Assembly: GCA_001661245.1 (NCBI GenBank)
Contig: KV454016.1
Span: forward strand, 866,268-930,267
Direction: 5' to 3'
Length of the DNA: 64,000 nt
Origin: Pachysolen tannophilus NRRL Y-2460
Lineage: Eukaryota
A model generated the notes under the pieces. The model worked only from the letters and a program-made list of their open reading frames with translations, had not been told where the DNA came from and made no database searches. The first letter of the stretch is position 1; each line of letters begins with the position of its first letter. Below, piece after piece: positions 4,267 to 61,516 of this stretch. The translations under genes were made by a program, and so were the position numbers.

Positions 4267-6493
4267 TTAATTTTTTTGTCCAGGCATTTGTTCAAATCTT
4301 AAATCCCAACCAATTTGAGGACCTAATCTTGGTAAAACTTCTGCAACACTTTGAACATCTTTATCACCTCTACCACTTATGGTAATAACAACAGTCTTGT
4401 CCTTTGGCATGGTTTTTGCTAATTCAACTGCACCAAAGACAGCATGGGAGGATTCTAATGCTGGAATGATACCTTCTAATTGTGATAATAATCTGAAACC
4501 TTCTAAAGCTTCGGCATCAGTGGCAGCGATGAATTGCACTCTTCCTGACAGTTTCCAGTATGCAAGTTCTGGTCCAACACCAGGGTAATCTAAACCAGCA
4601 GAGACAGAATGTGTATCGTGGACTTGACCGTCTGTATCTTGTAAGACATAAGTCTTAACACCGTGGAAGACACCAGGTATACCAGCAGTTAAAGTGGCAG
4701 AGTGTCTTTCTGTATTGAGACCATCACCACCAGCTTCAACACCTAAAAGTTTAACGGATAAATCATTTTCAAAAGGTGAAAACATACCACTTGAGTTTGA
4801 ACCACCACCAACACAGGCAACTATTGCATCTGGTAATTTACCATCATTTAATTTTTGAAATTGTTCTTTAGTTTCGTTACCAATAACACTTTGAAAAGTT
4901 CTAACTAAAGTAGGATAAGGATGAGGTCCAATTGCAGAACCAACAACATAATGAGTTGTTTTCAAGTTGGAAACCCAAAAACGGAAAGCTTCTGAAGTTG
5001 CATCTCTTAAAGTTTGAGTACCATTTGTAACGGCAATAACTGTTGCACCTAGTATCTTCATTCTAAAGACATTAAGAGCTTGACGACGTACATCCTCAGC
5101 TCCCATAAATACAGTACATTCTAAACCAAATTTTGCACATGCAGTAGCAGTGGCAACACCATGCTGACCAGCACCGGTTTCAGCAATAATTTTTTTCTTA
5201 CCAAGACGTCTAGCTATCAATACTTGTGCTAAAGCATTATTAATCTTGTGAGAACCGGTATGATTTAAATCTTCTCTTTTTAACCAAATTTGTGCACCTC
5301 CACAGTGTTCGGTTAATCTTTCTGCCTTATGTAAAGATGATGGACGACCAATATAAGAATATAATGATCTAAATTCTTCCCAAAATTTAGGATCTGCCAC
5401 AGCATCTTCAAAACCTTTTTCTAATTCAGCAAGACAAGCATGTAAAGCTTCAGGAACGTACTGACCACCAAATTGGCCAAAACGTGGATTATATTTGTGT
5501 TTTTCTTCAAAAACTGTAGTATCTTTATCCTTTTGGCGATGTGGAACTGTTGCCGGTATAGGTGTTGATATTGAGTCATGTTTTGAAAAAGGAGGATGTT
5601 CACCCAAGATGCTTTTAACATAAGCAGTAGCAGCTTTACCTCTTTCACCTGGTGCAGATTCTCCAATTATTGTAACAATCTTACTTCCAATAACAACACC
5701 ATCTGCTGCAGCACCAACTGTTAAGAAATGCTCTCTGGTACTAACACCAAATCCGACAGCCAATGGAGTGTTACCAGTAAATTTTCTAACTCTTGAAGTT
5801 AAACTTGAAATTGAATCATTGATTGTTCCAGTTGCACCTGTAGTACCCATTCTTGAAACAACATAAATAAAAGAATCTGCAATTTCCCCCAACAATTCCA
5901 ACCTATCATCAGTTGTTGAAGGAGCAACCAATGGAACATAACTCATATCATTTGCAATACAAAAACCTCTAAATTTTACAGCTTCTTCAGGTGGAAGATC
6001 CACTACAATAAAACCATTGGCACCTGCAGCTTTTGATTCTTTTATCATTTCTTGTTCACCAAATCTTAAAATCGGATTATAATAACCCATCAATATAATC
6101 GGAACAAAAACACCTTTACTTCTTGCCAATTTAACTAATTCCAAACATTTACCAACTGTAACACCATTACTTAAAGCCAAAGTATTTGCAGCTTGAATTG
6201 TTGGACCATCTGCAATTGGATCAGAGAATGGAATCCCCAACTCAATAACATCAACACCACCCTCCTGCATTCCTAACAAGATGGGAACCGTATCCTCAAT
6301 CGTTGGATATCCAGCAGTTATAAAAGTGATTAAAGCATTACGACCTTTAATTATTCATTTAAAAGTTAGTACCTTCTGAACGCAATGATAATTCAAAATC
6401 AAAATCAAAAAAAAAAAAAAAAAAAAAATAAAGTATAAATTTCTTACCTTCTTCTTTGCATTTTGCAAAAGTTTCTTTTAAAAGAGAAGTCAT
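4267..6493 (-). CDS. TRP5: Tryptophan synthase (fused alpha/beta), 2 exons
   Basis: Exon 1 6493-6448 ([15 protein letters not shown]), intron 6447-6345 GTAAGA..TACTAAC..AAG, exon 2 6344-4267; [17 protein letters not shown] and [12 protein letters not shown] (PLP Lys). Confidence 0.98.
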
Positions 6494-9486: not shown

Positions 9487-9542
9487 AGAGCTAAAGAGCT
9501 AAAGAGCTAAAGAGCTAAAGAGCTAAAGAGCTAAAGAGCTAA
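9487..9542. repeat. 8-bp tandem repeat (AGAGCTAA)x7
   Basis: Seven tandem units immediately 3' of the stop codon of the minus-strand MFS gene. Confidence 0.95.
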
Positions 9543-12889: not shown

Positions 12890-15800
12890 TCATATAATGA
12901 CTTGGCAATGCTTATTATACTCTGCAACTGCAATTCCAATCTTCTTGTACAAAAATTTCTTGCTTTCAGGATCAGAAATTGGAATAAATGGTCCATCAGC
13001 AAATCCGGTATTATTCTTAACACCAATTTTTATTCCTGTTTTCTCTAAAGACACACTCTTTATTTGATTATATTTAATACACCATTTACTGGTCATAGTG
13101 ACAATGGACATTAGTATAATACATTTAAATGACACCAATATAACATTTTCTTCACCAGGTAGAACAATATGAGCTAAGTATTTTTCCTTGTAATATTCAC
13201 CGTTATCTACATTTTTCAACCAAAATTGGCCCTGAGATTCTCTCTCCGAGAAAGGTCTAATAACTGAATCATAATCAATATAACGTGGTAACCTGACTCT
13301 TTCTAATCCTTGGCCATCGAAAACGGTGGTTGTATTACGAATGCCCTCACTGACATTGGAAGCTAAATCAAAAACTCCAATAGCTGTTTTGGTTGGTAAA
13401 CCAATTAAACCTTTACCAAGACCTTTAAAAAAACCGGCGGTTCCTTCTCTCGATCCTTGAACTGGAGCAGTTGCGATACCAGTTATACCACTAGAAACAC
13501 TATCTACAAATAATGATGCGCCATTAGCAAATCCATATAATGCATGGTTTGGTTTATTTGGACGTTGATTCAACCTGCGCCTTTCTTGAAAATTTTTATC
13601 CAAGGTAGCAGCTGTTAGACCCTTTGCCATTGAGCCTGTAAACTTTGCAAAACTGTCTGAAAATCCGAAAACTGATTTCTTCAAAAAACTAGCCCCTCCT
13701 TTAGCAAGTCCTATACCTAATTCTTGTGGCCTGTCATTCATAATAAAACCCTGATATGGTTCATAGAATATGTCCATTAATCCGGAACTGATATTATTGA
13801 ACAAACCAACAGGATTACCCAAAACGTCAGCAGAACCTAAAATCTTATGGATCTGATACAAGAAAGCTTGCCCATAATGTGTTCCAAAGGATTGAGTCAA
13901 CACAGGAAGTGGTACTCTAACATTTTCAATAAACAAAGCGTTGAGTCTAACGGGAGCATCATTTATATTACCAATTGCCATAGTTAAAATATTGAGGAAA
14001 AACATTAACGTATTTTGCGAGTCCGTTCTATCCTCAGCATCAAATCTTTCAGTACGAACAAATGACAAATTTATTTGGGCAGGCTGAACATGCAAAGCTT
14101 CAAAATATATATCATTATCTTCTGATAGATTCTGTGGTTCCGGAATTTCCAAATTTTCATCCCATAATTTATCATGAATCTCTTTATTCCAACTAGCTCC
14201 TGGAACCTTAGAAAAGTCCAATAAAGCATATATAAAATCTTCATCCATTTCCACTGTCAATTCTTGTAACAAAATGGTTGCGTATTTTATATAAAGTACG
14301 CCGTGACTAGTATCTTTAACTTTAGATATAGAGCCAGAGAAAGTTGGATGGTTATTCATTTCCTTACTTGACTGTGGTAGCACAGCAGGATATAAGGCAA
14401 TAGGATATGTACCACCATATAATTGGTTATCTATCTGAATCCACTTCAGCTTAACACTCAAATTTTGGTAGAGATCGGACTCATTATAGCGCAACTCGAT
14501 GCCCCTAAAGGTAATATAGCATAATTCTTGCAACTTTCTATTGATCAATGAAATTCCGACACCTTCCAATCTTACAATAATCTTGGAGTAATAATTTTCA
14601 TCTTTTTCAATAGTTTCAAATTTATCCAACTGACTAATAGATGTTGAGGACTCAGACAGCCTTGATTTCAATTTATACATACTAGTTGATGGGTCATAAT
14701 TGGATATAACTAATGACTGAGTTGGTCCATCTGCAACAACATTGAGATCAACTATCGATGCTTCATATTTACTTGTTTGTGGTAGTCTCATAGGCCTCAA
14801 ATTACCAATTTCGGCTAACTGGATATGGCGTTCTCTTGAATGCGACCTGATGACAAGTTCCTTTATATTGCCCGCTGGATAATCCCATGCGTATGGCATA
14901 ACACTCTTTGGAGGAAGTCTATAGTAAATTGGTTTGAATGGTGGAGCCTGAGGATCAATCGGAACATCATTTTCATCAACGTTCGGATCACTCTGATAAA
15001 ATATAAATTCCTCATCACTGAAATTTCTGATAGAGAAAGGCCAACGATTATTTGCATCTTCAATATTGATAAATAACGTTGCTTTTTCCATCAAAATATC
15101 TGCTTTCAACAACACATGTTCAACTCCTTCTTTTAGAACTTTTACGTAGATTTGACCTATGTCATTAATGTTAAAAGGAGAAGACCAACCAGAGTTGGAT
15201 CCAAGGAAGCTCACCATTAATTGCTTTTCTTTATTGCAACGCATATTATACAACGGAACAGTTTTGCCTGGTTCAATTGAAGTCTCCTTGGATGAACCAA
15301 TTTCTGTAAAGCGAATAGTTTTCTGAAGGCAGTTATGTAATACAAATCTTGGTGAAATAGTAATAACTTTTGTAAGTTTATATTTCCCTTCACCTTCTGC
15401 TATACTGACTCCAAGATTTATTTCAGTTTGCCCATTGTTGACCGGAACAGTAATATCAAAGGATTGTCCAATTGCATCTAAACTAAGAGGTCTGCTAGGA
15501 GCAGAATCATCAACTTTGAGAATAGCTCTATTATTCCGATCAGCATCTCTATCAAAGGAGAACATGTTTGGCAAAGATACCTTCACATCTTTATCAATAT
15601 CTAAAGATTCACGAGAACCATCTCTATATGACTTCATGACATTGAATTTTTCACTCAAAAATATGCTTCTTGCCGTTCTGTTGAGAACAAGGTACGGCGA
15701 GTATATAGTGATCTTAATTCCAGCACCATGATTGCGGGTAGAAGAATAATGGATATTTAGAAATAACTTTTGACCGTTTTGATGTTTTAGACAGACCCTG

Positions 15801-18800
15801 CTTTCTGGTTTGAATTCGCTACCCGCTGGTGAATTTATAATAGCAAACTCTGACTTTTCAAAACCAGAATCCAATGGGTGAACACTCAATAATATGAAGT
15901 GTTCTAATTTGACAACATGAATAGGACTATTGCCACCTTTTTTAAGAAAATTCTTCCAGTCTTTCTTATAGCTTTTATCATAAATACGATAAGACATATC
16001 AAACGGTAACAAATTTTCGATTTCTAATGGTGCTGAAACCACAATTTTCATATGTGGGTAAACCTTGGCCAAAGCTTCTTCTTCATCATATTGAGCTTGC
16101 ACCTGAAAGTAAAAGTTAGTTTTATCCGAAGAATTTGTGGATTCACATTTCAATGATTCTGCAGAGTATAAAAGGTTTTTCCAATACAACTTGTTTACGG
16201 ACCAACCAAACCCAGGAGAGCTTATTTCTGGTTGTAAAGCAACTTTAGCATTGTAAACATAATCTATTGGTAAAGCATGTGATTCTCCAGGATTTATTCT
16301 GAATGAATTTTTGGAGATATCTCCATCTCCAAGATCAAAACCGACATTAATTGTTACCAATGTATCATTTTCTATCGTGATAGTCGACTTCAAAACAACT
16401 TTCTTAATTTTATCTTCCCGAAGACTTATTTCACATGTTAGTCTATTGTGAACACCATTTTGAGCTGGTTGCAACATAAATATTTCTTCACCCTCACCCC
16501 TCATTGAAATGTTATTCACTTTAGCGTAAGGTGATCCAACAAGCTCAACACCTAGTAATCCTCTAGCATTATCAACTTTCAAAGTTTCACGTACTTCTCT
16601 CCAATCTTCAAAAAACCAAGGTATTTCCTCATCTTTTTTGACTAAGGTTAAATTTGTACGTGAATCACTGTTATCGTCAATCCAAACATTTATGTCATAT
16701 CCCGTTTGATTCAAAAGTCTATACGGACTATCTTCTCCACGTCTTTTTAGTTCAGAATCATCTGTTATCAATGACGATATTTGAGATAATAAAGCGATAG
16801 AACGAGTTGACACTGAAATTTCAGCCAACTGTCTGGAGACAATATCAACAACTAGAGAGGGTGATGGAGGTGTCGTTTTCGATATATGAAATGCAACTGG
16901 CCAGAGTTCAATTAAAGGTTCCCATGAAGATGTAGAGTAATCAAATATATTGACATATGATTCAATGTTTGTATCAGCTTCTAGATCTGTTGACCAGTTT
17001 TTAGCAGTTATGTTGAATGGCTTTACATTCATATCAAGAACCGGTAATTCATGAACGTCACCAATCAACACTAACCTTAACCCTGATAATTCGGCTAAAA
17101 GTTTTTCATCTTTGATAATGACAAGAGGCTCCTTTAGTGAAGATTTAGATACATCTGATGTATTTGATAATTTGGAGACCACGGTAGGAGCGTATTGTGA
17201 AAGCTTTCTTCTGAATTCTTTAGTAAATGAAGTATATGCAGCTTCTTCGTTTTCCTGCTGGATTTTGCTTTTGCTTGAACCACTAACTTGAGCATAAAGC
17301 TCCGAGGCTCTATTAAATATGTTAACGGCAAGTCTGATATCACGCAAAGATAATCTCATTAACAATGGTTCCACTGACACCTCTATGTTTGTTAAAAAGT
17401 TTGTGTCTGTGGACCCTCTTGAATCAATGGTCAAGGAAGCTGAAAAATCATCAATAATACGTAATCTGTTTTCATCGAATTCATTCATTCGACACATGAA
17501 CATACCTACGTTACTGGTAGATAAAGACATTATACTTTGACTAGTAACCAAGACTTGCTCCACTTTAAAAACAATTGCTTCAGAATCAGTTGAACTTGGA
17601 TCTGCTAATAATATTACAGATGAATTAACAATATTAACTGAAAATCCGAAGGATTTAGAGGATTCATCTTGGGTTTCTGGTGCTTCTGCGGAACTTTCTG
17701 GTGCTTTCCGACTTTGATCAGTTTGGGTATTTTCGTTATTTTTATTCTCATCAGGTAAAATTTCTTTCAGTGGAGTGAATCCAGTCGATTGAGTACTAAA
17801 ACCGATATCAGCAAATTGTTTCAAGGCAAATAAGTAATCTAAAGCTAAGATACATTTTGGACTGTCTATAGATATTACGGCATAAGAATATCTCTTCTCC
17901 AGTGGTCCTTCTGAGTAAAGAGAGGCCATAAATTGATATGAATCATGATTCACTTCTGGTATGATATCCGTAAATTTGTTATCTTTGGATTTTCTAACGT
18001 CCTCTACAACGAATGACTTGATATGTAGATCAGACTTAAAATTTCCATCCTCTCTAACTGCAAGTTCGAGGCCGATATCATTAAAAGAACATCTCGAGAG
18101 GGTATTACCTGTAATATCCTCAATATTTTTGGTGTCATTATAAATTGTTAAAGATAGTTCTGGAATTTTGAAAAAAAAGTCGATCTTTTTATGGTCTGGA
18201 GGTAATGTATTTTCTGGTTGAGCAATTTTATCGACAGCTTCAGTTCCCACATCAACAGGAACTACCGCTTTTGCATCCTGATCTTTTTTACCAACGACAA
18301 TGTTAACATTTGCAGCTTCATCTTCTAAATCAGATAGTGACTTGACTTCGGAATTGTCATCTGGGCCAAATGCTTTTGATATACTCTGAGAGATCTGCAA
18401 TAAATATTGGCACTGAATTTCGGTTAATTTTATTTCTGATCCTTCAACGTCTCCTGTAATTTTCATCATCGGACGGTCTATTGAGCTACTATCAGAATAA
18501 TCAATTTGAAATGATATACCTAGACCACAAATAATTTCAGAAGATTGCTGAAGATTATTCTCAAAATGAATTATAGAGGAAACCTTGGTCGATCTAAGTC
18601 CAGCACTAATGATATTTGAAAACGATTCACCATTTGGAACGTACTCATTAGTAGCATATATTTCACCAAGATGTGCTGTTAAATTATCATAAATGTTCTT
18701 TCCAGGATCAATTAATTTCGGAAAAACAATAATTGGAGTCCTCACTAAAATATCAAAATGAATTTTATTAGCATCTTCTATATTATTAGCCTGATTCCAA

Positions 18801-21800
18801 GCAGCATCCCTAGCCTTATCATAAATATACTTCATTCTTTGAAATTGGCTTAAGAAAGCTAATATTTTGTGAAACGGTTCCTCTGAAAAATTTACCCTAA
18901 CAGAACCAGTATGAAGCTTAACTGATGAATTGAACGAATTCTTATTTGTGGTATTATCAAACGTTTCATATGCTAATTCGGCTAAATCATTTCCATCAAT
19001 ACTGACCAACTTTCTTTGTAAAGAGTCTCTTGGAGAGCCTTCATTTACTTCATCGTGTAATGTTAAAGCACCTATTTTAGCTAGAAGTTTCATTTTCTCA
19101 GGTACCATAAATAAGTTTATATCGGCTTTACTCAATTGTAAAGTCGCCAACTTTATACCATCGTCATTCAAAACAAGAATAATACTTTCTAAATTCAAAT
19201 TGACATTCATTTTTTGAGGTGCAGTTTCTTCCTCTTCTTCAGAATTATGTCTCAATTCATCAGCTGGAGTTTCAGGAGCATTTGGATCAGTAAAAGTATT
19301 TAGAACAAAATTTAACAAAGTCAATAAGGATTTTCTAGTTACTATAATCTTAAAAGCAGCCATGTTCAAATTAACATCCTGATCAAAAATTTCAATTTCT
19401 TTATTGTTAAACTCAACAATTCTTTGAGTCCTTTTATAATTTAACTTGAATAAATGGTCTCTTTTTTCAACATTTTCATATTCATTAAACTCATTAGATG
19501 TTATTAATTTTTTAAATTCGTGAGAAGCAGATTTATCAATATGATCTTCAACATTAACCTCTGACAAAACTAAGTCCACATTCATTTCCTTCAGGGTTTT
19601 ATAAAAATCTAATGCTAAATTTTTACCAATGACGTCAACCAATGGTTCGGACGCTAAAGTTTCTCCATCAGTACATCTCAGTAAGCTTAAATGAATCAAC
19701 TCAACTCTGAAATTAAACTCAAACAAACGTTGTTTCTCGGATAAAGTTAAATCTTTCTTTAAAGAGGTGGTTGAAGCAGCCATCTTATCTTCTTCCTCTG
19801 TTTCTTCTTCTGATTCATTTCCACTAGGTAACTCTTCAAGTTTAGCTTCGTTACCGGCACCAAAAGTTTTAAACGTAATACTTTCAGCTAAATCGTCATC
19901 ATCAGAGAAATTGAAATTAGGAATAGCTTTGTCAATCAATTGCATGAATATCTTATATTGATAATCATTCAAAGCTGCCTTGAATATAGGAACATCACCG
20001 CTAATTTTAAATTTTGGCAAGGTGCTAGCAGTTGATATTATACATAGTTCCACTAAGAATTTCATACTGAAATTATCTAAAAGTAGAGCTGGCTTTTCAA
20101 TATCACTATGTAGTTGCTCAATAGTGGTCTTAATATTCGGACCAATTAAAATTTGGGCATCTTGTAAATGTAAGTTAAATTTATCGTACATCAAATTGTT
20201 TAATTTAGACCAGTCATCATCACTATACTCATGGGAAATTTTTGATTTAACTTCTTCAACTAAGGTCTTATCAGCTAAATCACTAATAACACTTATATGA
20301 CCTGCATCTAAGATAAGTACAGGTGAAGACCAACTTGAAGGATCTAGCGGTGTTATTATCAAAGGTGCTTGTAAATCTAATTTACAATTCAATGTCTTGT
20401 GCTCTTCTAAAGCATATTGCAAACCAATTCTGGTTTGATTTGTAAAACCTTCAATGGTGGATTCCGCGGCATTCATAATCATACCAATGGTGTCTAAGTG
20501 AATTTTTGGAGGAGTGAAAAATTTCGCAATATCTTCAATAAATTTTGGATTATGGAAAATTGTCATACTACGTAATTTAGCAGATAAAGCAGAATCTGCA
20601 GTTCCATCCAATGGATTATTCTCAAATGAGACATGGAAAAAGGGTTCTTCTTCTTCTTCATCAGTAGTAACTTCGGCATTTGCACTATGCACATCGGAAT
20701 GTAATGGTTTAACGCTAACAACATGTTTATATAAGGTAGAATCTGTACCATCTTCAACTCTACATTCTTGCATTTGAAAATTTGCCAATAATGAACCTGG
20801 TCTTTGATATATTTGTGTTTTACAGCCTTCAAATATGACTTCTGCCAAGTTTGAATTTTTATTTTTCTTAATTGTCAAACCACCTTTTTGAAGAACGGTT
20901 AAGACTTCAAATTTAACTCTATCTTTAGGAATATCAATAGCTTCAATTAATGCTTGTTGTTCATCATATTCAATAGCATTATAAAGTTCTTGTCTTTGCT
21001 GATCAGTCATTTGAATGTCATCATTAGAGCTATCACCATCAGCAGAGGAGTTTGGTGTTGTTGCAGACTTGCCTGCACCCCACCAGGAAAACCACCCACC
21101 GCCACCAGCGGTTTTTTGGCTCTCGGTACCTGCAGAAGCTGTTGTTGTGGTCTTAGAAGAATCGGTTGTGGTTGAAGTTGATGGCTCAACAGATGCTGTT
21201 TCAGAAGAATGAAGACTAAGTGCACCACTATTAAGAGTCAAATGTTCTTTTCTGTATTTAGATTTGGCCAATGATCTATAGAATCTAATATCTTCAAAAC
21301 TTAAGATTTCTTCTAATTTATCTAATTCAAGCTGCTGCTGCAGTTTTAAAGTTGGATTTTCAATTTTCAGTTTCCATAATTTCAAATATGAAACACGTTG
21401 ATCTCTTCTAGTTTTAAAGTATTCCCAAGACCATTTGTAATTTTTTTCATGAATTTCATCAAGAACACATTTGGCAGTATATTTAAACCATTCCAAAGGT
21501 GATTCTTCTACAGAAACTTTTGGTCTAAATTTCCTAAATTTATAAGTCTTTGCATACCAATGGAATTTTGAAGCTGTCCATAAAGCGTCTCTATATTGAT
21601 CACTATCAAGATCAATACCAAATTCATCGAAAAACAATTCAGCTTTAATATGAGGAGCTTTTTCTGTTGTACCTTGTTTATTTACTGTGAGATGACCATT
21701 ACCAGATACTGGTCTTAATAAAAATTGAGTATCTTCAGTATTTTGTGAATTTTTTTCAATTAATTCTTGGAAAATTTGAACTAATTCTTCTAAATTCTCA

Positions 21801-22598
21801 GTGAAAATAGATTCTGAATTTGTATTCCAATATGTTGTTAAAGATTTTAAAGTTAATAATTTTTTAGTAAACAATGTTGATACAGATATAAATGCAGGAA
21901 CCCATGATTCATCAGCAGATACTGCAGAAAATTCTTTTAAAGTTAACCCTATAGAGTAAGGATTTTCTGTGAAAACACTTGAATCTTCATATCTAATGTG
22001 AATATTTTTGATTGTAATTTGTAAATTATCTACAATCTTTGTTATTAAACTTTCTGTAAAACTTTCATTTCTTGCTTCTTCTTCTTTTGTTAGAGTTCCT
22101 ATTTTAGGTTTTGATTTATTTATTATCTCCAAATCTTCTAATTTTTCTTTTTTCAACAGCATTTCTCTCCTATGTTCTTCTTCTGCATCATAATTTTCTG
22201 CTAAAATTGGTGATGCCAACAAATAAACATTTTCAATTAATATCTTACAAGGTTTTGCTTTTAAATTTGACCATGGAATTTGTAATGTCAATTCACCCAA
22301 ATGACCAAATTTGACATCAAGCGGTAATTGAAACTTATCCAATGACTATTATTTTTTTTTTTTTTTTGAAATGGTTAGTTTAATAATTAAATCTTATAGA
22401 TAAATAAAAACTTGTAACAAAAGACAACAATTACAAATAATTCTCTTTTTTATATATACATACTTCTTTCTTTAAACGTAAATTTTTCAATTTTACATCA
22501 CCATTCCATATACCAATATTTAACTGTTTTGGATCAAAATTCTCAACATATGCTCCAAGAAATCTATTCAACAATCCCGCCGCAAGAGATTCCAACAT
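12890..22598 (-). CDS. VPS13: Vps13 lipid-transfer protein (chorein family), 2 exons, about 3196 aa
   Basis: Exon 1 22598-22464 ([22 protein letters not shown]..), intron 22463-22346 GTATGT..AACTAAC..TAG, exon 2 22345-12890; Chorein_[23 protein letters not shown]. Confidence 0.97.
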
Positions 22599-25427: not shown

Positions 25428-26348
25428 ATGCCGGTTGAATTCAAAGAGTTGGTTAGAAGTTTTAACTATAAGAGGATTTTAAAATCTGATCCTCAATTGA
25501 AAATATTGGTAATATTAGGTACTATAAATGATAAAAATGCTATAATTTCTTTGGAAAAAACACATTTTCAATTCACAGAAGATGAATTATCTTTAACTTT
25601 AATAAAAGATTTGATACTTGATATTTCTCAAATTGAAGAAAATGATATTTATTATTGGGGAGTAGATTTGTTAAAACAAGATCTAACACGATTTCCATCA
25701 TCAAAGATAAACCTCATATATCCAGCTACTGATGTACACATCAAGAAATATGACCAACAAGAATTCCATATGATAACCGAGACTCCTCAGATGTATACTG
25801 AGATTGTCGAACCTTATATTAATAAAATGAAAGGTGATAGAATTAAATGGGTTAAAAACATTTTGTTTGATAATAAAGAACTGGAGAAAATCATTTATAG
25901 AGATGATGATTTAGAAAAAGGATTTGTAATTTTGCCAGATATGAAATGGGATGCTAAGACTTTAGATTCATTATATTTGGTTTGCATAGTAATGAGACAG
26001 GATATATCGTCATTACGAGACTTAAATGAATCACATATACCATGGTTGCAATCATTGTTACAAAAACTTCGTTCTGAAATACCAAAACACTACGTGGGTA
26101 TTAAACCTGATAACTTGAGAATATTCATACACTATCAACCATCCTATTATCACTTTCACATCCATATAGTGAATGTTAAGCATCCAGGATTAGGAGACGG
26201 TATATCTGTTGGTAAGGCAATATTATTAGAAGAAATTATTGAAAATTTGAAATATTTAGGTAAAAATGGTTATAAAAATAGAAATATAACTTATGCTATA
26301 GGTGAAAATCATGACTTGTGGGAAATGGGATTGAAAGATGCTAATTGA
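25428..26348 (+). CDS. DCS1: m7GpppX scavenger decapping enzyme (HIT family)
   Basis: KINLIYPATDVHIKKY, LPDMKWD, HYQPSYYHFHIH HIT motif. Confidence 0.96.
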   Translation: MPVEFKELVRSFNYKRILKSDPQLKILVILGTINDKNAIISLEKTHFQFTEDELSLTLIKDLILDISQIEENDIYYWGVDLLKQDLTRFPSSKINLIYPATDVHIKKYDQQEFHMITETPQMYTEIVEPYINKMKGDRIKWVKNILFDNKELEKIIYRDDDLEKGFVILPDMKWDAKTLDSLYLVCIVMRQDISSLRDLNESHIPWLQSLLQKLRSEIPKHYVGIKPDNLRIFIHYQPSYYHFHIHIVNVKHPGLGDGISVGKAILLEEIIENLKYLGKNGYKNRNITYAIGENHDLWEMGLKDAN

Positions 26349-26621: not shown

Positions 26622-27806
26622 ATGGTTTCAAAGAGGCCAGCTTTTGAGTCATCTTCAGAGGAGGAAACAAATGATAGAGATTCAAGTATTAAGTTAGGGA
26701 AAAAGAAGAGATTTTTTGTACCGAAATCTATAACGCAAAATGATGATTATGAAAATGGAGTGAATATTGAGTCTGATAAGCATTTTAGTGATGATGATGA
26801 AGAAGAAGAAGTTGATGAAGAAATTGAAGATTATATGACCATGAGTGTACAAGAATTTGAAGAGAGTAAAAAGACTGGAAATCGGGAAGCAGATAGGAAT
26901 GATTTACATGGTATGAAATATGATGAAATTCAAAAACTTAAAAGAGATGAAGCAATCCGTACATCTTTATTAGAGTCTCAATCTAGTGGTCAAAAATCCA
27001 GAGGGTTATCAATAATGGAGAAAATGGGGTTTAAAGTTGGTGATAGATTGGGGAGAAACAAAAGCGATTGCAAAGCTTTATCGGAACCTATATTGATTAA
27101 TCTTTCAGGAAATGAATCAAGAGCTGGATTGGGGTTTATTGATGTTGATAAATCTAAAGAAAACGATGATGAGGTAGATGATGATCAATTCAGGAAAAGA
27201 ATAGTTCTGGGTAAGGTTGAGAAGCACAGAGAGATTGTCATCAATAAAATGATGAAATTGATATTTGAATTTGAATATGAAGAATATGAACGTTTAATGA
27301 AAAAGAAGACCAAGGGTCACAATAGCGACATTGACATTTTACTGCTAGATCCACTAGATGTCAATGTTTTATGCAGAAGGTACTTAGTTACCTTGCAGCA
27401 TAAGCTTATAGATGGACTCCAATATGAAGCCGGTGATGAGGAGGATGATGAATTAGAAGAAGTTGCCAATCCCGATGAAGTACCCTTAGATATAGAAAAC
27501 GACGAAGACGACAACGACGAAGACAACAACAACAACAACAAACAAGAAATAACAAATGAATTACCCAACCTAAAGATTAAACCAGTGCCCAAGAAAAAAA
27601 AAATTGGTGCTGCTATCAACTACAAGTTTGAAGACGATACCAAGTTTATGGAATTTGCTAAAACTTCAAGCCAGGAAAAATTATCAAGATTAAACACCTA
27701 CCTTAGATCTAATTTTTACTACTGCTATTATTGTGGAGTTCTGTATAACAATATAAAAGATTTATTGGATAGCTGTCCAGGAGAAAAAGAAGAAGATCAT
27801 TGTTGA
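26622..27806 (+). CDS. CMG1: G-patch protein with C-terminal DUF4187 Zn-binding domain (Cmg1/GPATCH11-like)
   Basis: SRGLSIMEKMGFKVGDRLG..RAGLG G-patch; YLRSNFYYCYYCG..CPG..EEDH; follows DCS1 as YLR270W-YLR271W do. Confidence 0.85.
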   Translation: MVSKRPAFESSSEEETNDRDSSIKLGKKKRFFVPKSITQNDDYENGVNIESDKHFSDDDEEEEVDEEIEDYMTMSVQEFEESKKTGNREADRNDLHGMKYDEIQKLKRDEAIRTSLLESQSSGQKSRGLSIMEKMGFKVGDRLGRNKSDCKALSEPILINLSGNESRAGLGFIDVDKSKENDDEVDDDQFRKRIVLGKVEKHREIVINKMMKLIFEFEYEEYERLMKKKTKGHNSDIDILLLDPLDVNVLCRRYLVTLQHKLIDGLQYEAGDEEDDELEEVANPDEVPLDIENDEDDNDEDNNNNNKQEITNELPNLKIKPVPKKKKIGAAINYKFEDDTKFMEFAKTSSQEKLSRLNTYLRSNFYYCYYCGVLYNNIKDLLDSCPGEKEEDHC

Positions 27807-34131: not shown

Positions 34132-34229
34132 AGCAAAAAGTCAATCTTTNTTTTTTTTTTTCTTTCTTTCTTTTTTATATTTTTATGTTTATTGTTACTA
34201 TTAATACTTTATAACTTTGAATTAGAAGA

Positions 34230-37174: not shown

Positions 37175-40100
37175 ATGGATTTTAATTTGTCTGAATCGTT
37201 TACGGCGTTTCAAGATGCTGATAAAGATTCATTCACGTTAGATGATGATCCAAAAGTATTATTGAACAATATTACAGATGCATTAGCCGTATCGCCGGAA
37301 TCCATAGGTAGAGATGATGTTTTTGATTCGTTGCAAATGTTGGTTAATTGTTATCCGAAATTGAATTCAAAGAAGATTCAAAGAGAGCTTGCTTATATAG
37401 TATTTTCATCGATGAATAATATTGCACAAAATACTATAAATATTATTGAAAATGGAGAACGTGATTCTTTTCTATTATATAAGAAATATTTAGAGTTGTA
37501 TGGATATCTGACTTATTGTTTATTGGATTATTTTAGCAAGGAAGATTTTAGTGGGTTGGGGAAAAAGGATAAGAAAACTATTGAGAATTTTAATTATCAA
37601 AATAAAGAACTTTCAGATTCTATGGAAGCAATAATAATGGTATTAAAAATTAATTTATCAAAATTATTTGTAACTACTCCAGAAAGAGATTTATTTATAA
37701 GTTTATTTACAAGACCAATATATCAATTAATGGAGTTTAAAGAAAGAATGAAAAATAATACCGTCAAATTATTAATGTTTAGATGTATTAGTATGGCGGT
37801 TAAATTTCATGGACATGCAAATGTTGCTCAAGGTTCAATCATTTCAAATTTAACATTTTTTGAACATTTATTTGGACCTTTAGCAGAGTTATTACAAATG
37901 TTAACTGATCAATATGATTATAGTCAGTTAACAGAAGAAATTTTAAGAGAATTATCAAATAAAGAATATAGTGAAAAAGATGTTAATGTACCAAAGACAA
38001 TTGCAGCCTTCTTAACAAGGTTATCTGAACTAATACCGAGAGTTGTAATGAAGCAAATGACTTTAATTGCTCAATTGTTAGATAATAATTCTTCGACTTT
38101 AAGATCTGCTGTTATTGAAGCTTGTGGTAATATCATTACAAATATTTGCAAAGATAAAGAAATGTATGAAATTCATAAAGAACAAGTTGATAAATTTATA
38201 GACTTATTAGAAGGTAGATTATTGGATCAATATCACTATGTTAGGTCTAAAGCATTGCAAACTATGACAAAATTATGTACTTTGGACGTGAAGTTTAGCA
38301 CTCGTCGTCAAGAATTTTTAGATTTAACAGTAAGATCATTACAAGATAAAAGTTCTTTTGTACGGAAATGTGCATTAGAATTGATTACTGAATTGGTAAA
38401 TAACCATTCATTTTCCTTGTTACATGGTTCTCAGTTAGATTCGGAAGTTTGGAAAGCAAGATTGGAGGCAACTGAACATCAATTGGAAGAGTTAGATCCT
38501 ACTTATAAAGCAATGAAGGAGGCAGAAAAGGAAATGCTAAAAGAACTGCAAAATTTTGACGAAATGGATGTTGATGAAGAAGGTAACGATGAAGATGAAG
38601 ATGGAACACCTAAGGGAGCACAACAAGATGGAGATGAAGAGGAAGAGGAAAAAAATAAAGAAGAGGAGGAGGAGCAGCAGCAGCAGAAGGAGGATGACGA
38701 TGACGACGATGATGATGATGCGAATAATGCAGCTAATTTGTCAGTGATCAATGACGACCCTATACATAAAGACCAAGCAACTATCAATAATATTGCAAAA
38801 TTAAAACTTACCATACAGTATTATATTGATGCTCTTAAATTTATAGCATCTTTAGAAAAAGCTTTAGAATTAACTTCTCAGTTATTATATTCAAAAAATA
38901 AAACAGATGTCATTGCTGCAATGGAATTTTTTGTTTTGGCAAATGCATATGATATACGTGGTAATGAGATTGGTATCAAACGTATGTTGCATTTAGTGTG
39001 GATGAAAAATGGGAATGATGAAAACGATAACATTCCCAAAAAATTGGTTGAATGCTACCATCACTTATTTTTAATTTCACCACCAAACACTTCAGCCATT
39101 CAACATGCCTCATATGTTGCCAAGAATCTATGTAAGTTGACTTATAATGCATCTGTTGCAGATTTGGCCTCTCTTGAAAAATTAATTTATTTAATGTACA
39201 AAGACAAATTAATTGATGATATGATAATCAAAGTATTGTGGCAAATTTACAGTTTCCAACAAAGAATTGAAGAGATCACAGAGAGACAACAACGGAAACA
39301 ACGTCGTGGTGCAATTATTATATTAGGCATGTTGGGCTTAGCAGATCATACTATTGCATTAAAAGGTTTGGATTTATTATTAAGTATAGGACTTGGAGAA
39401 AATGGTAAGGAAGATTTAATTTTACAAAGATATTCCTGTATTGCTATTCAGAGAATTATACCAAGTCTGAAAAATGTTGAAATGGTGGATGACACCAATA
39501 GCAATCAATTTATTATGTCCAGGGAAAAAGAAGTGATTGAAAAAGTGACTAATATATTGTTGTATTATACTGAAGATCATGAATGGTATAGTATTGCTGA
39601 ACAAGCAGTGAGTGCTATTTATGGAATTTCTCAAGCGCCCGATGAGGTATGTACTGAGATCATTAAGAGAAAGACTGTAGAAGTGTTAGGGGATTCTGAA
39701 AATAATAATGGAGCTGTAGAAAGCTCGAATAAAGATGATTCAGATGGAAAGAATAGAAAACAGATAATAGGACTTTCACAATTATTATTTATTGTGGGAC
39801 ATGTTGCCATTAAGACAATTGTCTATTTGGAGAAATTGGAAACTCAATTTAAGAAAAAAAAATTACAGATTGAGCAGTCAAAAACACAAAACGATGAAGA
39901 TGGTCTGCAAAAGGAAAATCCAGATAATGAGTTAGAAATGATTGGTGGTACTTCTGAAGATGACTTTGCTGATGCAGTTATTAGTATCAAGGAGCACCAT
40001 TTGTTGTATGATAGCAATTCGATATTATCTCGTTTCAAAGATATTGTCAAAGTCATATGTCAATCGAACTACCAATATGATAATATAATATTACAAAGAT

Positions 40101-40783
40101 CAGCAACTTTGTGTCTTTCTAAATTGATGCTTATTTCTTCTAAATACTGTGAGGAGAATTTACCCTTGTTAATTACTATTATGGAAAGGTCGCCAGACCC
40201 TATTATTAGAAGTAATGCAGTTCTAGCTTTGGGTGATATGGCTGTTGTTTTCAATAATCTTGTTGACGACAATACAGATTTCTTATACAGGCGTCTTAAC
40301 GATGATAATATAATGGTTCAAAGAACTTGCTTAATGACTGTTACATTTTTAATTCTTGCGGGTCAAGTGAAAGTTAAAGGACAACTTTCGCAAATGGCAA
40401 AATGTCTTGAGAACAAAGATCAAGGTATAAGTGATATGTGTAAAATGTTTTTCACTGAACTTGCAACAAAGGATAATGCTATTTATAACTCGTTTATCGA
40501 TTTGTTCAGTGGTCTTTCTAACGATGAAGATTTAGAACAAGATTCATTTGAGAAGATTGTCAAATTTGTCATTGGCTTTATTAACAGGGAAAAATCGAAT
40601 GATAAGCATATTAAGCAATTAAGTACTAAATTGTTACAAAGATTAAAGAAGGCAGAGAGTGAAAAACAATGGAAGAGCGTCAAATTTGTATTGAATTGTT
40701 TAGAAATTAAAAATGAAGAATTGGATAAGGAAATTAAAGATGCAATTAATGAAGGCTACAATATGGTTAGTGTTGAAAACTGA
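37175..40783 (+). CDS. YCS4: Condensin HEAT subunit Ycs4/Cnd1
   Basis: LFVTTPERDLFISLFTRP, ELEMIGGTSEDDF, IRSNAVLALGDMAV, MTVTFLILAGQVKVKGQL. Confidence 0.97.
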   Translation: MDFNLSESFTAFQDADKDSFTLDDDPKVLLNNITDALAVSPESIGRDDVFDSLQMLVNCYPKLNSKKIQRELAYIVFSSMNNIAQNTINIIENGERDSFLLYKKYLELYGYLTYCLLDYFSKEDFSGLGKKDKKTIENFNYQNKELSDSMEAIIMVLKINLSKLFVTTPERDLFISLFTRPIYQLMEFKERMKNNTVKLLMFRCISMAVKFHGHANVAQGSIISNLTFFEHLFGPLAELLQMLTDQYDYSQLTEEILRELSNKEYSEKDVNVPKTIAAFLTRLSELIPRVVMKQMTLIAQLLDNNSSTLRSAVIEACGNIITNICKDKEMYEIHKEQVDKFIDLLEGRLLDQYHYVRSKALQTMTKLCTLDVKFSTRRQEFLDLTVRSLQDKSSFVRKCALELITELVNNHSFSLLHGSQLDSEVWKARLEATEHQLEELDPTYKAMKEAEKEMLKELQNFDEMDVDEEGNDEDEDGTPKGAQQDGDEEEEEKNKEEEEEQQQQKEDDDDDDDDDANNAANLSVINDDPIHKDQATINNIAKLKLTIQYYIDALKFIASLEKALELTSQLLYSKNKTDVIAAMEFFVLANAYDIRGNEIGIKRMLHLVWMKNGNDENDNIPKKLVECYHHLFLISPPNTSAIQHASYVAKNLCKLTYNASVADLASLEKLIYLMYKDKLIDDMIIKVLWQIYSFQQRIEEITERQQRKQRRGAIIILGMLGLADHTIALKGLDLLLSIGLGENGKEDLILQRYSCIAIQRIIPSLKNVEMVDDTNSNQFIMSREKEVIEKVTNILLYYTEDHEWYSIAEQAVSAIYGISQAPDEVCTEIIKRKTVEVLGDSENNNGAVESSNKDDSDGKNRKQIIGLSQLLFIVGHVAIKTIVYLEKLETQFKKKKLQIEQSKTQNDEDGLQKENPDNELEMIGGTSEDDFADAVISIKEHHLLYDSNSILSRFKDIVKVICQSNYQYDNIILQRSATLCLSKLMLISSKYCEENLPLLITIMERSPDPIIRSNAVLALGDMAVVFNNLVDDNTDFLYRRLNDDNIMVQRTCLMTVTFLILAGQVKVKGQLSQMAKCLENKDQGISDMCKMFFTELATKDNAIYNSFIDLFSGLSNDEDLEQDSFEKIVKFVIGFINREKSNDKHIKQLSTKLLQRLKKAESEKQWKSVKFVLNCLEIKNEELDKEIKDAINEGYNMVSVEN

Positions 40784-43829: not shown

Positions 43830-46800
43830 TTATAACACATCAAACGTGGATGTAAATCCAACAATAACAAAGCAGCTAACAGCAACAAAAACGCACCAGA
43901 TCATCACTTGATGCCATAATGGAGGAGAATTGTATCTAACCAACATAAGGCATATGCTTAAAATGATCAAGGCCAACGAAAATACCAATCCTAGGATAAT
44001 CATTACAAGGATCATTGTAGAAACAGTGCCATTATTTGCCAAATCATCTGATTCTAAAATGGAAAAGATTATACCAACTGATATACCAGAAGTCAAGCAC
44101 GACAAAAAAAGAGTTGTCAAGTATAAAAAAGTTATAACTTTATCGTATTGTACGCGCTTATAATATGTTTCTTGTGTTGATCTGATATGACGGTGATGTT
44201 TTTTATTATTGAGATTAATTGAAGGTGTTGGTGAAGAGTATCTAACTTGAGGCGGACGGTTGTTTTCAGTAACTTCATCAACTCCAGAATCTTCATCAGC
44301 TCCAGATTCCATATCTAAATTCCCAATGGACCCGTAATTGGTGTTATAAATATTATATCCGTTTGTACTGCTACTACAACTTCCATCATTACTAAGGCTA
44401 CTATGACGATTACCATTGAGCAAATACTTATCATAATATTCGTCTTGATTACTTTCAGCGTCATCGTTTTGGTTTAAAAGCAAAAAATGTAAGCCCAAGT
44501 AATTAATAAAATGGTTGTAGCACAGTATAAACTTATTCGATAATAAAAATAAATTTCTAACTTTTTGCTGTGATAAAAATGGTGTTGTCTCCATAACTGC
44601 ACCTTCGTCTTCCAGGTTAGGATCACCATAACCTTCTTCATTGGTGTATATGAAAAAACGACCTTCGTTATCTTCAAAATCAGAGCCATTATCAAATTCA
44701 TTCCAATATTTTGTATCTGGGTTTGGAGTTTTCACAAATTTTGTCTTTTTAGGTAAATGTTGCTTAGAAATTGGAACAAAATCATTCTTATTCAATAATA
44801 TTCCTCCATTAGAACCATTGTTATTATTGTTGTTGTTATTATTGAGATTAAGAGTTTCTTGTAATATTTCACTATTTTTTGGAGGTAATTTCCTAATATC
44901 TGAATTTTGTTCAATATCATCAAACCATTTAAATCTTGACCATTCAGTAGGATCATCAATCACCACTGAATCTCTATAATATTTTAAAATGTAATAATTC
45001 ATCAAATTAAAACCAGCATTACCATCTATTTCATAAACTAAATAAGAATCTATTAATTTTTGAATTTCTGTTGGGAAAAACAGTGGTAATCCAGAGGATG
45101 CAGAAGCTGCTGACGAATCTGATGATATACTAGATACATCGTATCTTATAGTCAACAAAGAGTATGGAAAATGGTCAGATATAATATCATCATGATCTGT
45201 CCATGATCTTGTTGATAAATCTGAAATTGCAGATTGAATCCCCGTATCCAATGTAATAAAGAAATTAGGATTATGCTTGGTTAAAAATCTTGTTCTATTA
45301 AATTTTACCTTAACTATAGGATCATTATTGTTACTTAATATCCAATTAAGGGCCTTTAAATTATCTTTATTGAACATTGTACTATTGCTGTTAATACTAT
45401 TATTATCCTTCAGATTTTTCAAAAGAGTATTCAAATTTTCAGCTTTTGAATCCTTCCCATCAGTAATGAGTTCATCAATAACATCATCTGGTAAGATAGA
45501 GTATGCCACATTTTTAAATCCGCCGATGGGGCAGGATAAGAATGAATGATTTGTTTCAATTTCAGTAACAATAGAAGCTGGAATATCACTATTTTTCAAT
45601 TTCAATTCCATGTTATCACGATTGTTTAAATAAAGGCAAGTCAACATATTCCCAGGATTGAATTTATTATTATCTAATTCTTGTTTATCATCTTGATCTT
45701 GTTGGTCATCATCTTCTCCATCGGTGGCATTATTTGAGTTGTTGTTGTTGTTGTTGTTGTTGACAGTTTTATTACTTTTTGTTGCGCTTAAATTACTTTT
45801 GATGGATCTAGTTCTATTAGCTAGATGTAAATGAGATGGAGTTTTTTTCAATAAAAGTCTTGAATTTTTGGAATTTTTTATAGTTCCTTCATCATTACAA
45901 ACCAAATTAAATTCTTTTAATAAAATAAGTCTTATTTCATTTAAATTATCATCATGTATTAAGAAATTTTTAGATCTAATACCTTTTATAAGTGAATTTA
46001 AATCAAAATTTGCAGTTTTAGAATTCAATAATGGTAATTGTGATAATTGATTATGCAGACGTAATGATGAATTATTTATCTCTAAATTATTATTATTATT
46101 ATTATTGACATAGGGTAAAAATTGTTTTGAAGAATTACCATCTATTGAATTATTATCTAATGAGCTTAATACATCCATAAGTAAACTTAATTCTTGTATT
46201 CCATCATTTAAATTTGTATTAATAAAAGATTCTTGATTTTTTTCTAATAAATTACCTTTAATATAATTTATGAATTCCAGTTTATTTTCTAAATTTGAAT
46301 ATTTAAAAAATTTTTTAAATAATTTTTTCAAAATTAATTTTTGAAGATTTATAAATTTTGCTAAATCTTCATATTCAACTAATAATTTATTTGTTTCTGA
46401 ACAAATTTTATAATAATTTCTTATTCTTATCTTTGCAATACTTGGAGAAAAAATTTCTTCATTTTCATTATTATTTAAAGTAATTAATAATTGATTAATT
46501 TTTTCTCTTAATAAGATAAGTTCATTTGAATTTTTATCATTTGTTGAATTAACAAATAAAGAAACAAAATTAATTTCTTTTTGAAAAGTCTTGTATAAAT
46601 CTTTTATTAAATGGACATATTGTTCATGATGAGCAGCCAGTTCCAGACTCAGCGCCGCTTCAACACCTGTTTCCAGTACTTCTGTTCCCAGTACTTCTGT
46701 TCCCGGAACTACTTTTCCCAGTGCTACTGTTTCCACCACGGGTACCGTAGTGGCCAACTTTATCTTATACTTCAACTCATTATAATTTATATTATTATGT

Positions 46801-46847
46801 CTCCATCTAGATATTGATCTTTTGCTTAGTTCCTGTCCAAACTTCAT
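43830..46847 (-). CDS. VTC5: SPX-domain membrane protein, Vtc5/YDR089W-like
   Basis: ATG 46847 MKFG..W..INYNELKYKIK (SPX), central VTC-like region, KYWNEFD, three C-terminal TM helices; adjacent to SLU7 as in S. cerevisiae. Confidence 0.8.
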   Translation of the reverse strand: MKFGQELSKRSISRWRHNNINYNELKYKIKLATTVPVVETVALGKVVPGTEVLGTEVLETGVEAALSLELAAHHEQYVHLIKDLYKTFQKEINFVSLFVNSTNDKNSNELILLREKINQLLITLNNNENEEIFSPSIAKIRIRNYYKICSETNKLLVEYEDLAKFINLQKLILKKLFKKFFKYSNLENKLEFINYIKGNLLEKNQESFINTNLNDGIQELSLLMDVLSSLDNNSIDGNSSKQFLPYVNNNNNNNLEINNSSLRLHNQLSQLPLLNSKTANFDLNSLIKGIRSKNFLIHDDNLNEIRLILLKEFNLVCNDEGTIKNSKNSRLLLKKTPSHLHLANRTRSIKSNLSATKSNKTVNNNNNNNNSNNATDGEDDDQQDQDDKQELDNNKFNPGNMLTCLYLNNRDNMELKLKNSDIPASIVTEIETNHSFLSCPIGGFKNVAYSILPDDVIDELITDGKDSKAENLNTLLKNLKDNNSINSNSTMFNKDNLKALNWILSNNNDPIVKVKFNRTRFLTKHNPNFFITLDTGIQSAISDLSTRSWTDHDDIISDHFPYSLLTIRYDVSSISSDSSAASASSGLPLFFPTEIQKLIDSYLVYEIDGNAGFNLMNYYILKYYRDSVVIDDPTEWSRFKWFDDIEQNSDIRKLPPKNSEILQETLNLNNNNNNNNNGSNGGILLNKNDFVPISKQHLPKKTKFVKTPNPDTKYWNEFDNGSDFEDNEGRFFIYTNEEGYGDPNLEDEGAVMETTPFLSQQKVRNLFLLSNKFILCYNHFINYLGLHFLLLNQNDDAESNQDEYYDKYLLNGNRHSSLSNDGSCSSSTNGYNIYNTNYGSIGNLDMESGADEDSGVDEVTENNRPPQVRYSSPTPSINLNNKKHHRHIRSTQETYYKRVQYDKVITFLYLTTLFLSCLTSGISVGIIFSILESDDLANNGTVSTMILVMIILGLVFSLALIILSICLMLVRYNSPPLWHQVMIWCVFVAVSCFVIVGFTSTFDVL

Positions 46848-51507: not shown

Positions 51508-51801
51508 ATGGCCGAAGGAATGGAAAAATTAACTGAAGTTCCTACAGAGTTTATCAGAGAAGGAACTCTGTTTATCAATAAATGTACTAAACCTGATCAA
51601 AAAGGTAAGTTTTGAAAAAGAGAATATTAGTACGGAAAAAAAAAGAAAGAACCTTTCATACTAACTTTAGTCATCTATTTGTTTGTTGTTAAAGAATACT
51701 TGAGAGTTATTAGAGCTGTTGGTATCGGTTTTGTTATGATGGGTCTTGTAGGTTACGGTGTGAAATTAATTCATATTCCAATACGTTACTTGATTGTTTA
51801 A
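51508..51801 (+). CDS. SSS1: Sec61 gamma subunit, 67 aa, 2 exons (absent from ORF track)
   Basis: Exon 1 51508-51604, intron 51605-51694 GTAAGT..TACTAAC..AAG, exon 2 51695-51801; EFIREGT.FINKCTKPDQKEYLRVIRAVGIGFVMMGLVGYGVKLIHIPIRYLIV. Confidence 0.97.
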
Positions 51802-58883: not shown

Positions 58884-60426
58884 TTAGTGATTACTTTTTG
58901 GTGAATTTGGTAATTGTGCCAAAGATTTCTTTATAGCTTCAACACCTTTTAATAAATCTTCTTCTGAAATGACCAATGGTGGAGCCAATCTTATGATATG
59001 ATCATGTGTTGGTTTAGCCAAGACCCCATGATTTTTCATCAATAAACATAAATCCCAAGCAGTGCGTCCATTTGTCTTTTCATGATCAATTACAATAGCA
59101 GTTAATAAACCTTTACCTCTTACTTCAGAAATAATTCCTCCTGATTCTTTTTGTAAATTCAATAATTTTTCTGTGAAAAATAAACCTAATTTTGCAGCTC
59201 TTTCTGTTAATTTTTCATCTTCAATAACTTTTAATGCAGCAATTGCTACTCTACAAGCTAATGGGTTACCACCATAAGTTGAACCATGAGATCCTGGTTC
59301 TAAAATCGACATGATTTCTCTTGAAGATAGTACACAACTTATTGGTAATACACCTCCAGATAATGCTTTAGCCAATAAGACGATATCTGGTTTAACACCT
59401 TCAGAATGTTGATAACATAATAATTTTCCTGTTCTACCAATACCAGTTTGAATTTCATCACAAATAAATAATGAATTATATTTATGACATAATTTTTGAA
59501 CTTTTAATAAATAATCTTTTGGTGGTACAACAATTCCAGCTTCACCTTGAATTGGTTCTAATAAGATTGCAGCAATTTTATCACCATTTTTTGCAAAAAC
59601 TTCTTCCATATCTTCAATAACACCATACCTAATTGGTTTATTTGTATTTGGTAAATTAGAATGTAAACCTGGAATAAAAGGACCAAAATTTGTAGTTGCA
59701 TCTGGATCAGTTGACATTGAAATAATACCTAAAGTTCTACCATGGAAATTATTTTCCAGTGCAATAATAATACTTTCATTTGGATTAATTCCCTTTTTAA
59801 CATACCCCCATCTTCTTGCAATTTTTAATGCTGTTTCTACAGCTTCTGCACCTGTATTCATTGGTAAAACCATTTCATATCCAAAATATTCAGTAATAAA
59901 TTTAGCAAAAACTCCAAAAACATTTGAATGAAATGCTCTAGAACAAAGTGTCATATTTTGTGCACCTTCAATTAATGCATCAACAATTTTTGGATGAAGA
60001 TGACCTTGATTAACTGCAGAATATGCAGATAAAAAATCTAAATATTCTTTACCTTCACAATCCCAAACTTTTGCACCTTTAGCCTTTTTTAAGACAACTG
60101 GAAGTGGGTGATAATTATGAGCAGCATATTTCCTATAAAATTGAAAAAGCAAAAAAAAAAACACAATTTGTAATTAATACCAATGTTAGTATATACTATT
60201 ACTATTACTATTACTTCATGTATGGTATTAAATTTAATTTTATTTTTCACCCAAATTTTAATCGTGCATATTATTTTTCAAATCATGATATAATAATAAA
60301 TAAAACAAAATGAGATTTTGAAGTTGCAAAAAAGTATCTCCATATAATTTATGAGATGAGATAATATACTTACGATTCAAGTTCAATAGCTTCTTCAGAA
60401 CTAATATTAAATGATGGTTCAGACAT
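58884..60426 (-). CDS. CAR2: Ornithine aminotransferase, 2 exons
   Basis: Exon 1 60426-60374, intron 60373-60133 GTAAGT..TACTAAC..TAG, exon 2 60132-58884; [59 protein letters not shown]. Confidence 0.98.
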
Positions 60427-60949: not shown

Positions 60950-61516
60950 ATGTACAAGAGAACCAATTATAATTCAGTAGGAACAGAGTCAGCTCAGGGC
61001 CAGGTCCTGAGCCAGGTCCTGAGCCAGGCCCTGAACTATGATGATGAGACGAGGTTAAAGTTACAGGCAATTGGAATGAGGATTAGAAAATCAATAGCAG
61101 ATGGTTACTGTGTTCCTGGGGGTGATTCAAATGGATACTTGACAGATTTACAATCGCAACACCTTAACCAGCAGCTGGAGCTGCTGCAGTTGCAGTTGCT
61201 GGGACAAGTACTGGCACTGGGACAATCTATGGTTGCGCCTTCTTTCAAACGTGTACCACTTGCAAGTCACGTGACGCGGCCTCCAAGTTTAAGTTTTAAC
61301 AATTCAAGTACTTTAGAAGGTGAAAATTTTGAAAATGGGTTTAATATGAATCGTGAAAATTTAGGTAGGAAAAGATCTAGAGAATTTGATGAAGAGAATT
61401 ATCATTACAAAGAGAAAAAAGAACTGGAAAATCAATTTGTAATTGCTAGTAAAGATGTTCCGCTTGAAGTTTTCCAAAATAGACATGGCGCTTTACAGTT
61501 TGATCAAGATTTTTAA
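60950..61516 (+). CDS. DIF1: Ribonucleotide reductase regulator, Dif1/Sml1/Spd1 family
   Basis: ATG 60950; LQAIGMRIRKSIADGY (Hug/RNR-inhibitor motif), RPPSL..SSTLE Sml-like degron; lies between CAR2 and ECM30 as DIF1 does in S. cerevisiae. Confidence 0.85.
   Translation: MYKRTNYNSVGTESAQGQVLSQVLSQALNYDDETRLKLQAIGMRIRKSIADGYCVPGGDSNGYLTDLQSQHLNQQLELLQLQLLGQVLALGQSMVAPSFKRVPLASHVTRPPSLSFNNSSTLEGENFENGFNMNRENLGRKRSREFDEENYHYKEKKELENQFVIASKDVPLEVFQNRHGALQFDQDF
61001..61036 (+). repeat. 12-bp coding tandem repeat (CAGGTCCTGAGC)x3
   Basis: Two exact copies and one variant, each containing an in-frame CTG. Confidence 0.9.

Follow-up and report, generated by a model that had tools for sequence, protein, structure and literature searches.

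Which amino acid does the codon CTG specify in this DNA? The question is raised by a CAR2-like ornithine aminotransferase gene on the minus strand, in which the residue preceding an ENNFHGR motif is encoded by CTG, in the context gca CTG gaa aat aat ttc cat ggt aga. An earlier note on the window (the whole stretch of 64,000 nucleotides that was analyzed) had called attention to this codon and proposed that CUG is very probably decoded as alanine, that each leucine given for CTG in the open reading frame (ORF) track is a mistranslation, and that this would be new only if the species lay outside the CUG-alanine clade or if decoding were ambiguous. We conclude with near certainty that nuclear CUG codons of Pachysolen tannophilus NRRL Y-2460 are read as alanine (NCBI translation table 26). 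This decoding is already known: the code was described in 2016 and is applied in the public annotation. P. tannophilus is the species in which alanine decoding of CUG was first demonstrated, and table 26 is named after it.

Species of origin and public annotation

The window has a G+C content of 30%. Its 29 ORFs of at least 120 amino acids comprise 16,050 codons, among which CTG occurs 89 times, TTA 782 times and TTG 437 times. The 89 codons are not all independent events, since several CTGs were multiplied as part of short tandem repeats that keep the reading frame (46667-46735, 60999-61034 and 61171-61201). Amino acids 43-70 of an SPX-like ORF form an EV[CTG]GT run derived from 4.6 copies of a 15-bp unit, and the ORF at 60950-61516, which has 10 CTG codons in 188 amino acids and a table-26 protein in NCBI, carries QV[CTG]S from three copies of a 12-bp unit.

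When the VPS13 ORF was searched with its CTG codons written as X, it was 100% identical to PACTADRAFT_18111 of P. tannophilus NRRL Y-2460; the next-best match was 61% identical, and homologs from Kuraishia, Ogataea, Komagataella and Scheffersomyces were 52-56% identical. For the YCS4 ORF, the match in this strain was PACTADRAFT_45056, at 98% identity. Both annotated proteins have alanine wherever the window has CTG (nine of nine sites in PACTADRAFT_18111 and four of four in PACTADRAFT_45056). By a taxonomy look-up, the species belongs to the order Alaninales and within it to the family Pachysolenaceae. The diagnosis of this order includes the decoding of CUG as alanine (Groenewald et al. 2023; PMC11182611), and the alanine clade consists of Pachysolen, Nakazawaea and Peterozyma according to Krassowski et al. 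2018, who cite two discovery reports from 2016 (PMC5951914). Because the window is from Pachysolen, the possibility that the species lies outside the CUG-alanine clade is ruled out.

To identify the code used in the public records, we translated window ORFs with tables 26, 12 and 1 and looked up each translation by exact identity in NCBI/UniRef. The table-26 translation was present for six of eight genes, namely DCS1, RCL1, CWH41, ARP6, SPT2 and the ORF at 60950-61513. By the same look-up, no exact match was obtained for the table-1 translations of seven genes or for the table-12 translations of four. The FMT1-like ORF at 11558-12703 and the ORF at 8659-9261 had no exact match with any code tried; differing gene models in the annotation may be the reason.

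The molecular basis of this code has been described for the same strain by Mühlhausen et al. 2016, in whose analysis the Pachysolen tRNA(CAG) clusters with alanine tRNAs (PMC4937558). The available text of that report describes a tRNA with G3:U70 within G1GGC4 and with A73, lacking an extended variable loop, that retains G37 beside the anticodon, as leucine tRNAs do. It further describes LC-MS/MS of NRRL Y-2460 in which peptides covered 1433 of 16,824 CUG positions, 907 of them fully supported by fragment ions. Alanine was found at 97.2% of these 907 positions; eight were ambiguous and 18 had another residue, which is close to what was seen for AUG as the control codon. A tRNA of the alanine type that acquired the anticodon CAG by mutation would account for the reading of CUG as alanine in P. 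tannophilus. All 89 CTG codons in the 29 ORFs are accordingly translated as alanine, and a standard-code translation wrongly gives leucine.

The window and the public records together supply the species, the use of table 26 in annotation, and the un-leucine-like behavior of CTG in alignments; the evidence on identity elements of the tRNA and the proof by proteomics are taken from published work (PMC4937558). No tRNA gene was found in the 64-kb window by ARAGORN or Rfam. The proposal of alanine decoding is borne out by the species, the table-26 annotation, and the published tRNA and LC-MS/MS data. Because all of these already existed, the finding itself was known: alanine decoding in the window adds nothing new scientifically, and its relevance to annotation is routine. 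An ORF track made with the standard or the bacterial code has leucine in place of alanine at 89 codons in 29 ORFs, and table 26 is advisable for downstream work.

Conservation at CTG columns

We asked what the CTG codons look like in alignments of homologous proteins. Three deep alignments were used, with 119 non-self homologs each for VPS13 and YCS4 and 150 cluster representatives for an MBOAT-family ORF. With a weighted occupancy of 0.7 as the lower limit for a column, 12 of 16 CTG sites remained; VPS13 aa1465, YCS4 aa765 and aa911, and MBOAT aa518, which falls in a gap region, were dropped. The two remaining MBOAT columns are mixed (aa244, G31/V26/A26/L22; aa326, G39/A24/K19). A 1005-aa SPX/VTC-like ORF with 12 CTG codons was excluded from the count, as its four non-self homologs are too few for column statistics.

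Leucine was the dominant residue in 3 of the 12 CTG columns, compared with 353 of 457 columns for TTA, TTG, CTT, CTC and CTA in the same genes (Fisher p = 2.4e-4). The mean leucine frequency was 0.21 at CTG versus 0.63 at the other five leucine codons, and among 5000 resamplings of 12 ordinary leucine-codon sites, none had a leucine score as low as that of the CTG set. When summed over the 12 sites, the log-odds were highest of all 20 residues for alanine (+2.22), followed among the three candidates by leucine (-2.46) and serine (-4.49). The lead of alanine over leucine is about 4.7 nats. For comparison with the alanine sum, ordinary codons score roughly +14 to +19 for their own residue over 12 sites. 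With the two conserved-leucine columns discussed below removed, the remaining 10 sites gave +6.88 for alanine and +1.5 for serine.

The CTG columns do not look like typical alanine columns either. They differ from those of GCN alanine codons (Mann-Whitney p = 7e-4), and only 0.06% of resamplings of ordinary alanine codons had an alanine score as low as the CTG level. They are also poorly conserved, with a mean top-residue frequency of 0.39 versus 0.64 overall. In VPS13 and YCS4, the strongly conserved columns numbered 121 for alanine, 160 for serine and 271 for leucine, and CTG was present at 0, 1 and 2 of them, respectively. The columns in the window thus argue firmly that CTG is not read as leucine, and they point weakly to alanine. 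Taken alone, this evidence would not establish alanine; a 64-kb window has too few alignable CTG sites for the residue to be called from columns.

As a positive control for counts at conserved columns, we used a VPS13 homolog (P0124) from an apparent CUG-serine yeast translated with the standard code. It has leucine at 10 of 108 conserved VPS13 serine columns, defined as those with serine in at least 70% of homologs. Since leucine appeared at up to 10 conserved serine columns in the control, the count is able to detect a reassignment. The 61% identical relative (P0007 in VPS13, P0127 in YCS4) has no leucine at conserved alanine columns in either gene, a result that is uninformative as to whether these proteins are mistranslated products of a CUG-alanine yeast.

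The VPS13 homologs P0124, P0087, P0076, P0106, P0107 and P0110 and the YCS4 homolog P0158 each have 6-10 leucines at serine columns. Such a pattern is expected if large automatic collections apply the standard code to CUG-serine yeasts. Standard-code translations of yeasts with reassigned codes thus leave visible errors in large protein collections.

Individual CTG sites

The CAR2 codon lies where it had been reported, and a script found CTG in the expected context at all six other positions named in the earlier note (Table 1). The CAR2-like ORF matches Pfam Aminotran_3 (E = 5e-105), and its best PDB matches are ornithine aminotransferases. In alignments to solved structures, its CTG column has alanine in human OAT and cysteine in 5viu. 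The DCS1 column has serine in S. cerevisiae, valine in one homolog, and alanine in mouse and human, in agreement with the homologous sequences that the earlier note gives for S. cerevisiae (AESER) and human (AEADR). At SSS1 the solved homologs have Q, Q, Q and R, which agrees with the EGTQF given there for S. cerevisiae, and at TRP5 they have S, D, D and D.

Table 1. CTG codons named for individual genes and ORFs used for deep alignments (coordinates are positions in the window; aa, amino acid position in the ORF)
Feature	Site and context	Coordinates	Strand	Remark
TRP5 (tryptophan synthase) CTG	aa574, AYWK[CTG]SGR	4549..4551	-	codon confirmed
VPS13 ORF	9 CTG codons	12890..22162	-	deep alignment
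VPS13 CTG	aa 2572, VK[CTG]KWIQIDNQ	14447..14449	-	ORF 12890..22162
DCS1 (scavenger decapping enzyme) CTG	aa 152, NKE[CTG]EK	25881..25883	+	exact table-26 protein in NCBI
DUF4187 (CMG1-like) CTG	CGV[CTG]Y	27741..27743	+	codon confirmed
MBOAT-family ORF	3 CTG codons	29149..30978	-	deep alignment
YCS4 ORF	4 CTG codons	37175..40783	+	deep alignment
YCS4/condensin subunit 1 CTG	aa 112, GY[CTG]TYC	37508..37510	+	ORF 37175..40783
SSS1 (Sec61 gamma) exon 1 CTG	aa21, EGT[CTG]F	51568..51570	+	codon confirmed
CAR2-like ornithine aminotransferase CTG	aa 66, IIIA[CTG]ENNFHGR	59757..59759	-	ORF 58884..59954

Four further sites were read from PDB alignments: CWH41 aa573 (T, P, P), RRP1 aa87 (K, L, M), RCL1 aa316 (E, D, G) and ARP6 aa421 (T, E). 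Two others were excluded: RRP1 aa132, which is part of a low-complexity stretch of acidic residues, and ARP6 aa286, which falls in a gap region. None of the eight PDB-read sites had a leucine majority, and alanine was seen at CAR2 and DCS1. Together with the 12 deep-alignment sites, 3 of 20 alignable CTG sites are leucine-dominant. We also considered whether CTG sites fall mostly at residues one mutation away (L, V, M, P, Q and R). By eye this is the case for about 6-7 of the 20, roughly the share that these residues usually have in proteins, and we make no such claim.

Alternative readings of CUG

A standard leucine reading, in which the non-leucine columns would be chance occurrences at variable positions, draws on the CTG codons at VPS13 aa2572 and YCS4 aa112, which lie in strongly conserved leucine columns, and on a summed leucine log-odds that is not far below the alanine value. 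Against it stand the scarcity of leucine-dominant columns relative to the other leucine codons of the same genes, the 5000 resamplings of ordinary leucine sites, none of which scored so low, and the eight PDB-read sites. Moreover, none of the seven standard-code translations was matched in NCBI, and the published mass spectrometry assigned alanine to nearly all supported positions (PMC4937558, available text). We consider this reading hardly credible. A serine reading (table 12), as found in Candida and Debaryomyces (Serinales) or in the Ascoidea and Saccharomycopsis clades, would fit the CTG at VPS13 aa828, whose column is serine-dominant (S in 85 of 119 homologs), as well as the serines seen in some homologs at the TRP5 and DCS1 columns. 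However, serine dominates only 2 of the 12 CTG columns and has the lowest summed log-odds of alanine, leucine and serine, P. tannophilus lies outside the CUG-serine clades, the four table-12 translations found no match, and the proteomic data in the available text of PMC4937558 gave alanine. The probability of serine is thus negligible.

The last alternative is ambiguous or site-dependent decoding, with alanine and some leucine inserted at CUG, so that the codons in conserved-leucine columns would be tolerated through partial leucine insertion. Consistent with this idea, 2 of the 12 alignable CTG codons lie in columns with 85-92% leucine, and the published tRNA has the G37 of leucine tRNAs (PMC4937558, available text). 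The same source nevertheless counts no more ambiguous and non-alanine positions (8 and 18 of 907) than for AUG, and its tRNA(CAG) is without the long variable arm for recognition by LeuRS. Ambiguous decoding, which would have made the observation new, was not found by the published proteomics (PMC4937558), and we regard it as exceedingly improbable. Decoding as alanine is the reading that we retain.

Comparison with known systems leads to the same placement. Table 26, the nuclear code of P. tannophilus and the Alaninales, is the same code in the same organism; there is no difference between it and the window, which is the type case. In the CUG-Ser1 yeasts (Candida and Debaryomyces; table 12), which belong to a related budding-yeast class, CUG has likewise been reassigned by way of a non-leucine tRNA(CAG), according to the available text of PMC5951914. 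The inserted residue there is serine, whereas in the window serine agrees less well with the CTG columns than alanine or leucine does. Ascoidea asiatica (CUG-Ser2) has also reassigned CUG, but it inserts serine and leucine stochastically and is the known example of a sense codon with a double meaning (PMC6041473, available text). Its decoding depends on competing serine and leucine tRNA(CAG) genes, whereas the Pachysolen CUG is described as being as unambiguous as AUG (PMC4937558, available text).

CTG codons at conserved leucine columns

Two CTG codons had been put forward as counter-examples to alanine decoding because they seemed to lie at leucine positions, and this description of the columns is accurate. 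VPS13 aa2572 has leucine in 101 of 119 homologs, and YCS4 aa112 has leucine in 109, phenylalanine in 8 and isoleucine in 2 of 119. The nearest relative, at 61% identity, has leucine at both positions. The annotated Pachysolen proteins (P0006 for VPS13 and P0126 for YCS4) have alanine at both. A survey of 26 proteins with cytoskeletal or motor functions found no Pachysolen CUG codons in places where leucine is highly conserved, according to the available text of Mühlhausen and Kollmar 2014 (PMC4986446). In view of that negative survey, the two sites are minor exceptions, in genes other than those surveyed.

The simplest account of both sites is a tolerated leucine-to-alanine substitution that arose by one TTG-to-CTG or CTH-to-CTG mutation. 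It is very unlikely that they are instead relics of ancestral CUG-leucine codons that survived the reassignment, or places where a minor amount of leucine is inserted. Either possibility, if true, would be informative on whether loss of a tRNA or an ambiguous intermediate led to the change of code.

Other features of the window

For several genes the sequence suggests introns or a division between ORFs (51508-51800; upstream of 22162, 59954 and 6270; and 32141-34131). Exon 1 of SSS1 ends after ...KPDQKG, and the frame picks up about 100 bp further on. The annotated VPS13 protein has 3196 amino acids versus 3090 for the ORF, and for CAR2, TRP5 and RRP1 the match of the ORF begins within the respective Pfam profile, at position 60, 33 and 53. 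A PX-domain ORF (32141-32824) adjoins a Snx8/Mvp1 BAR ORF (33034-34131). The sole ambiguous base of the window is a single N at 34150, flanked by the BAR-domain ORF on one side and RCL1 on the other.

The 1005-aa ORF (43830-46847, minus strand) has an SPX-like N-terminus, a weak match to the VTC domain and hydrophobic segments toward its C-terminus. Its four non-self homologs, at E <= 1e-10, are 25-32% identical, and the ORF is fast-evolving or lineage-restricted. Elsewhere, seven copies of a perfect 8-bp tandem repeat, AGAGCTAA, occupy positions 9487-9542 and adjoin the 3' end of an MFS transporter ORF (9550-10947, minus strand).
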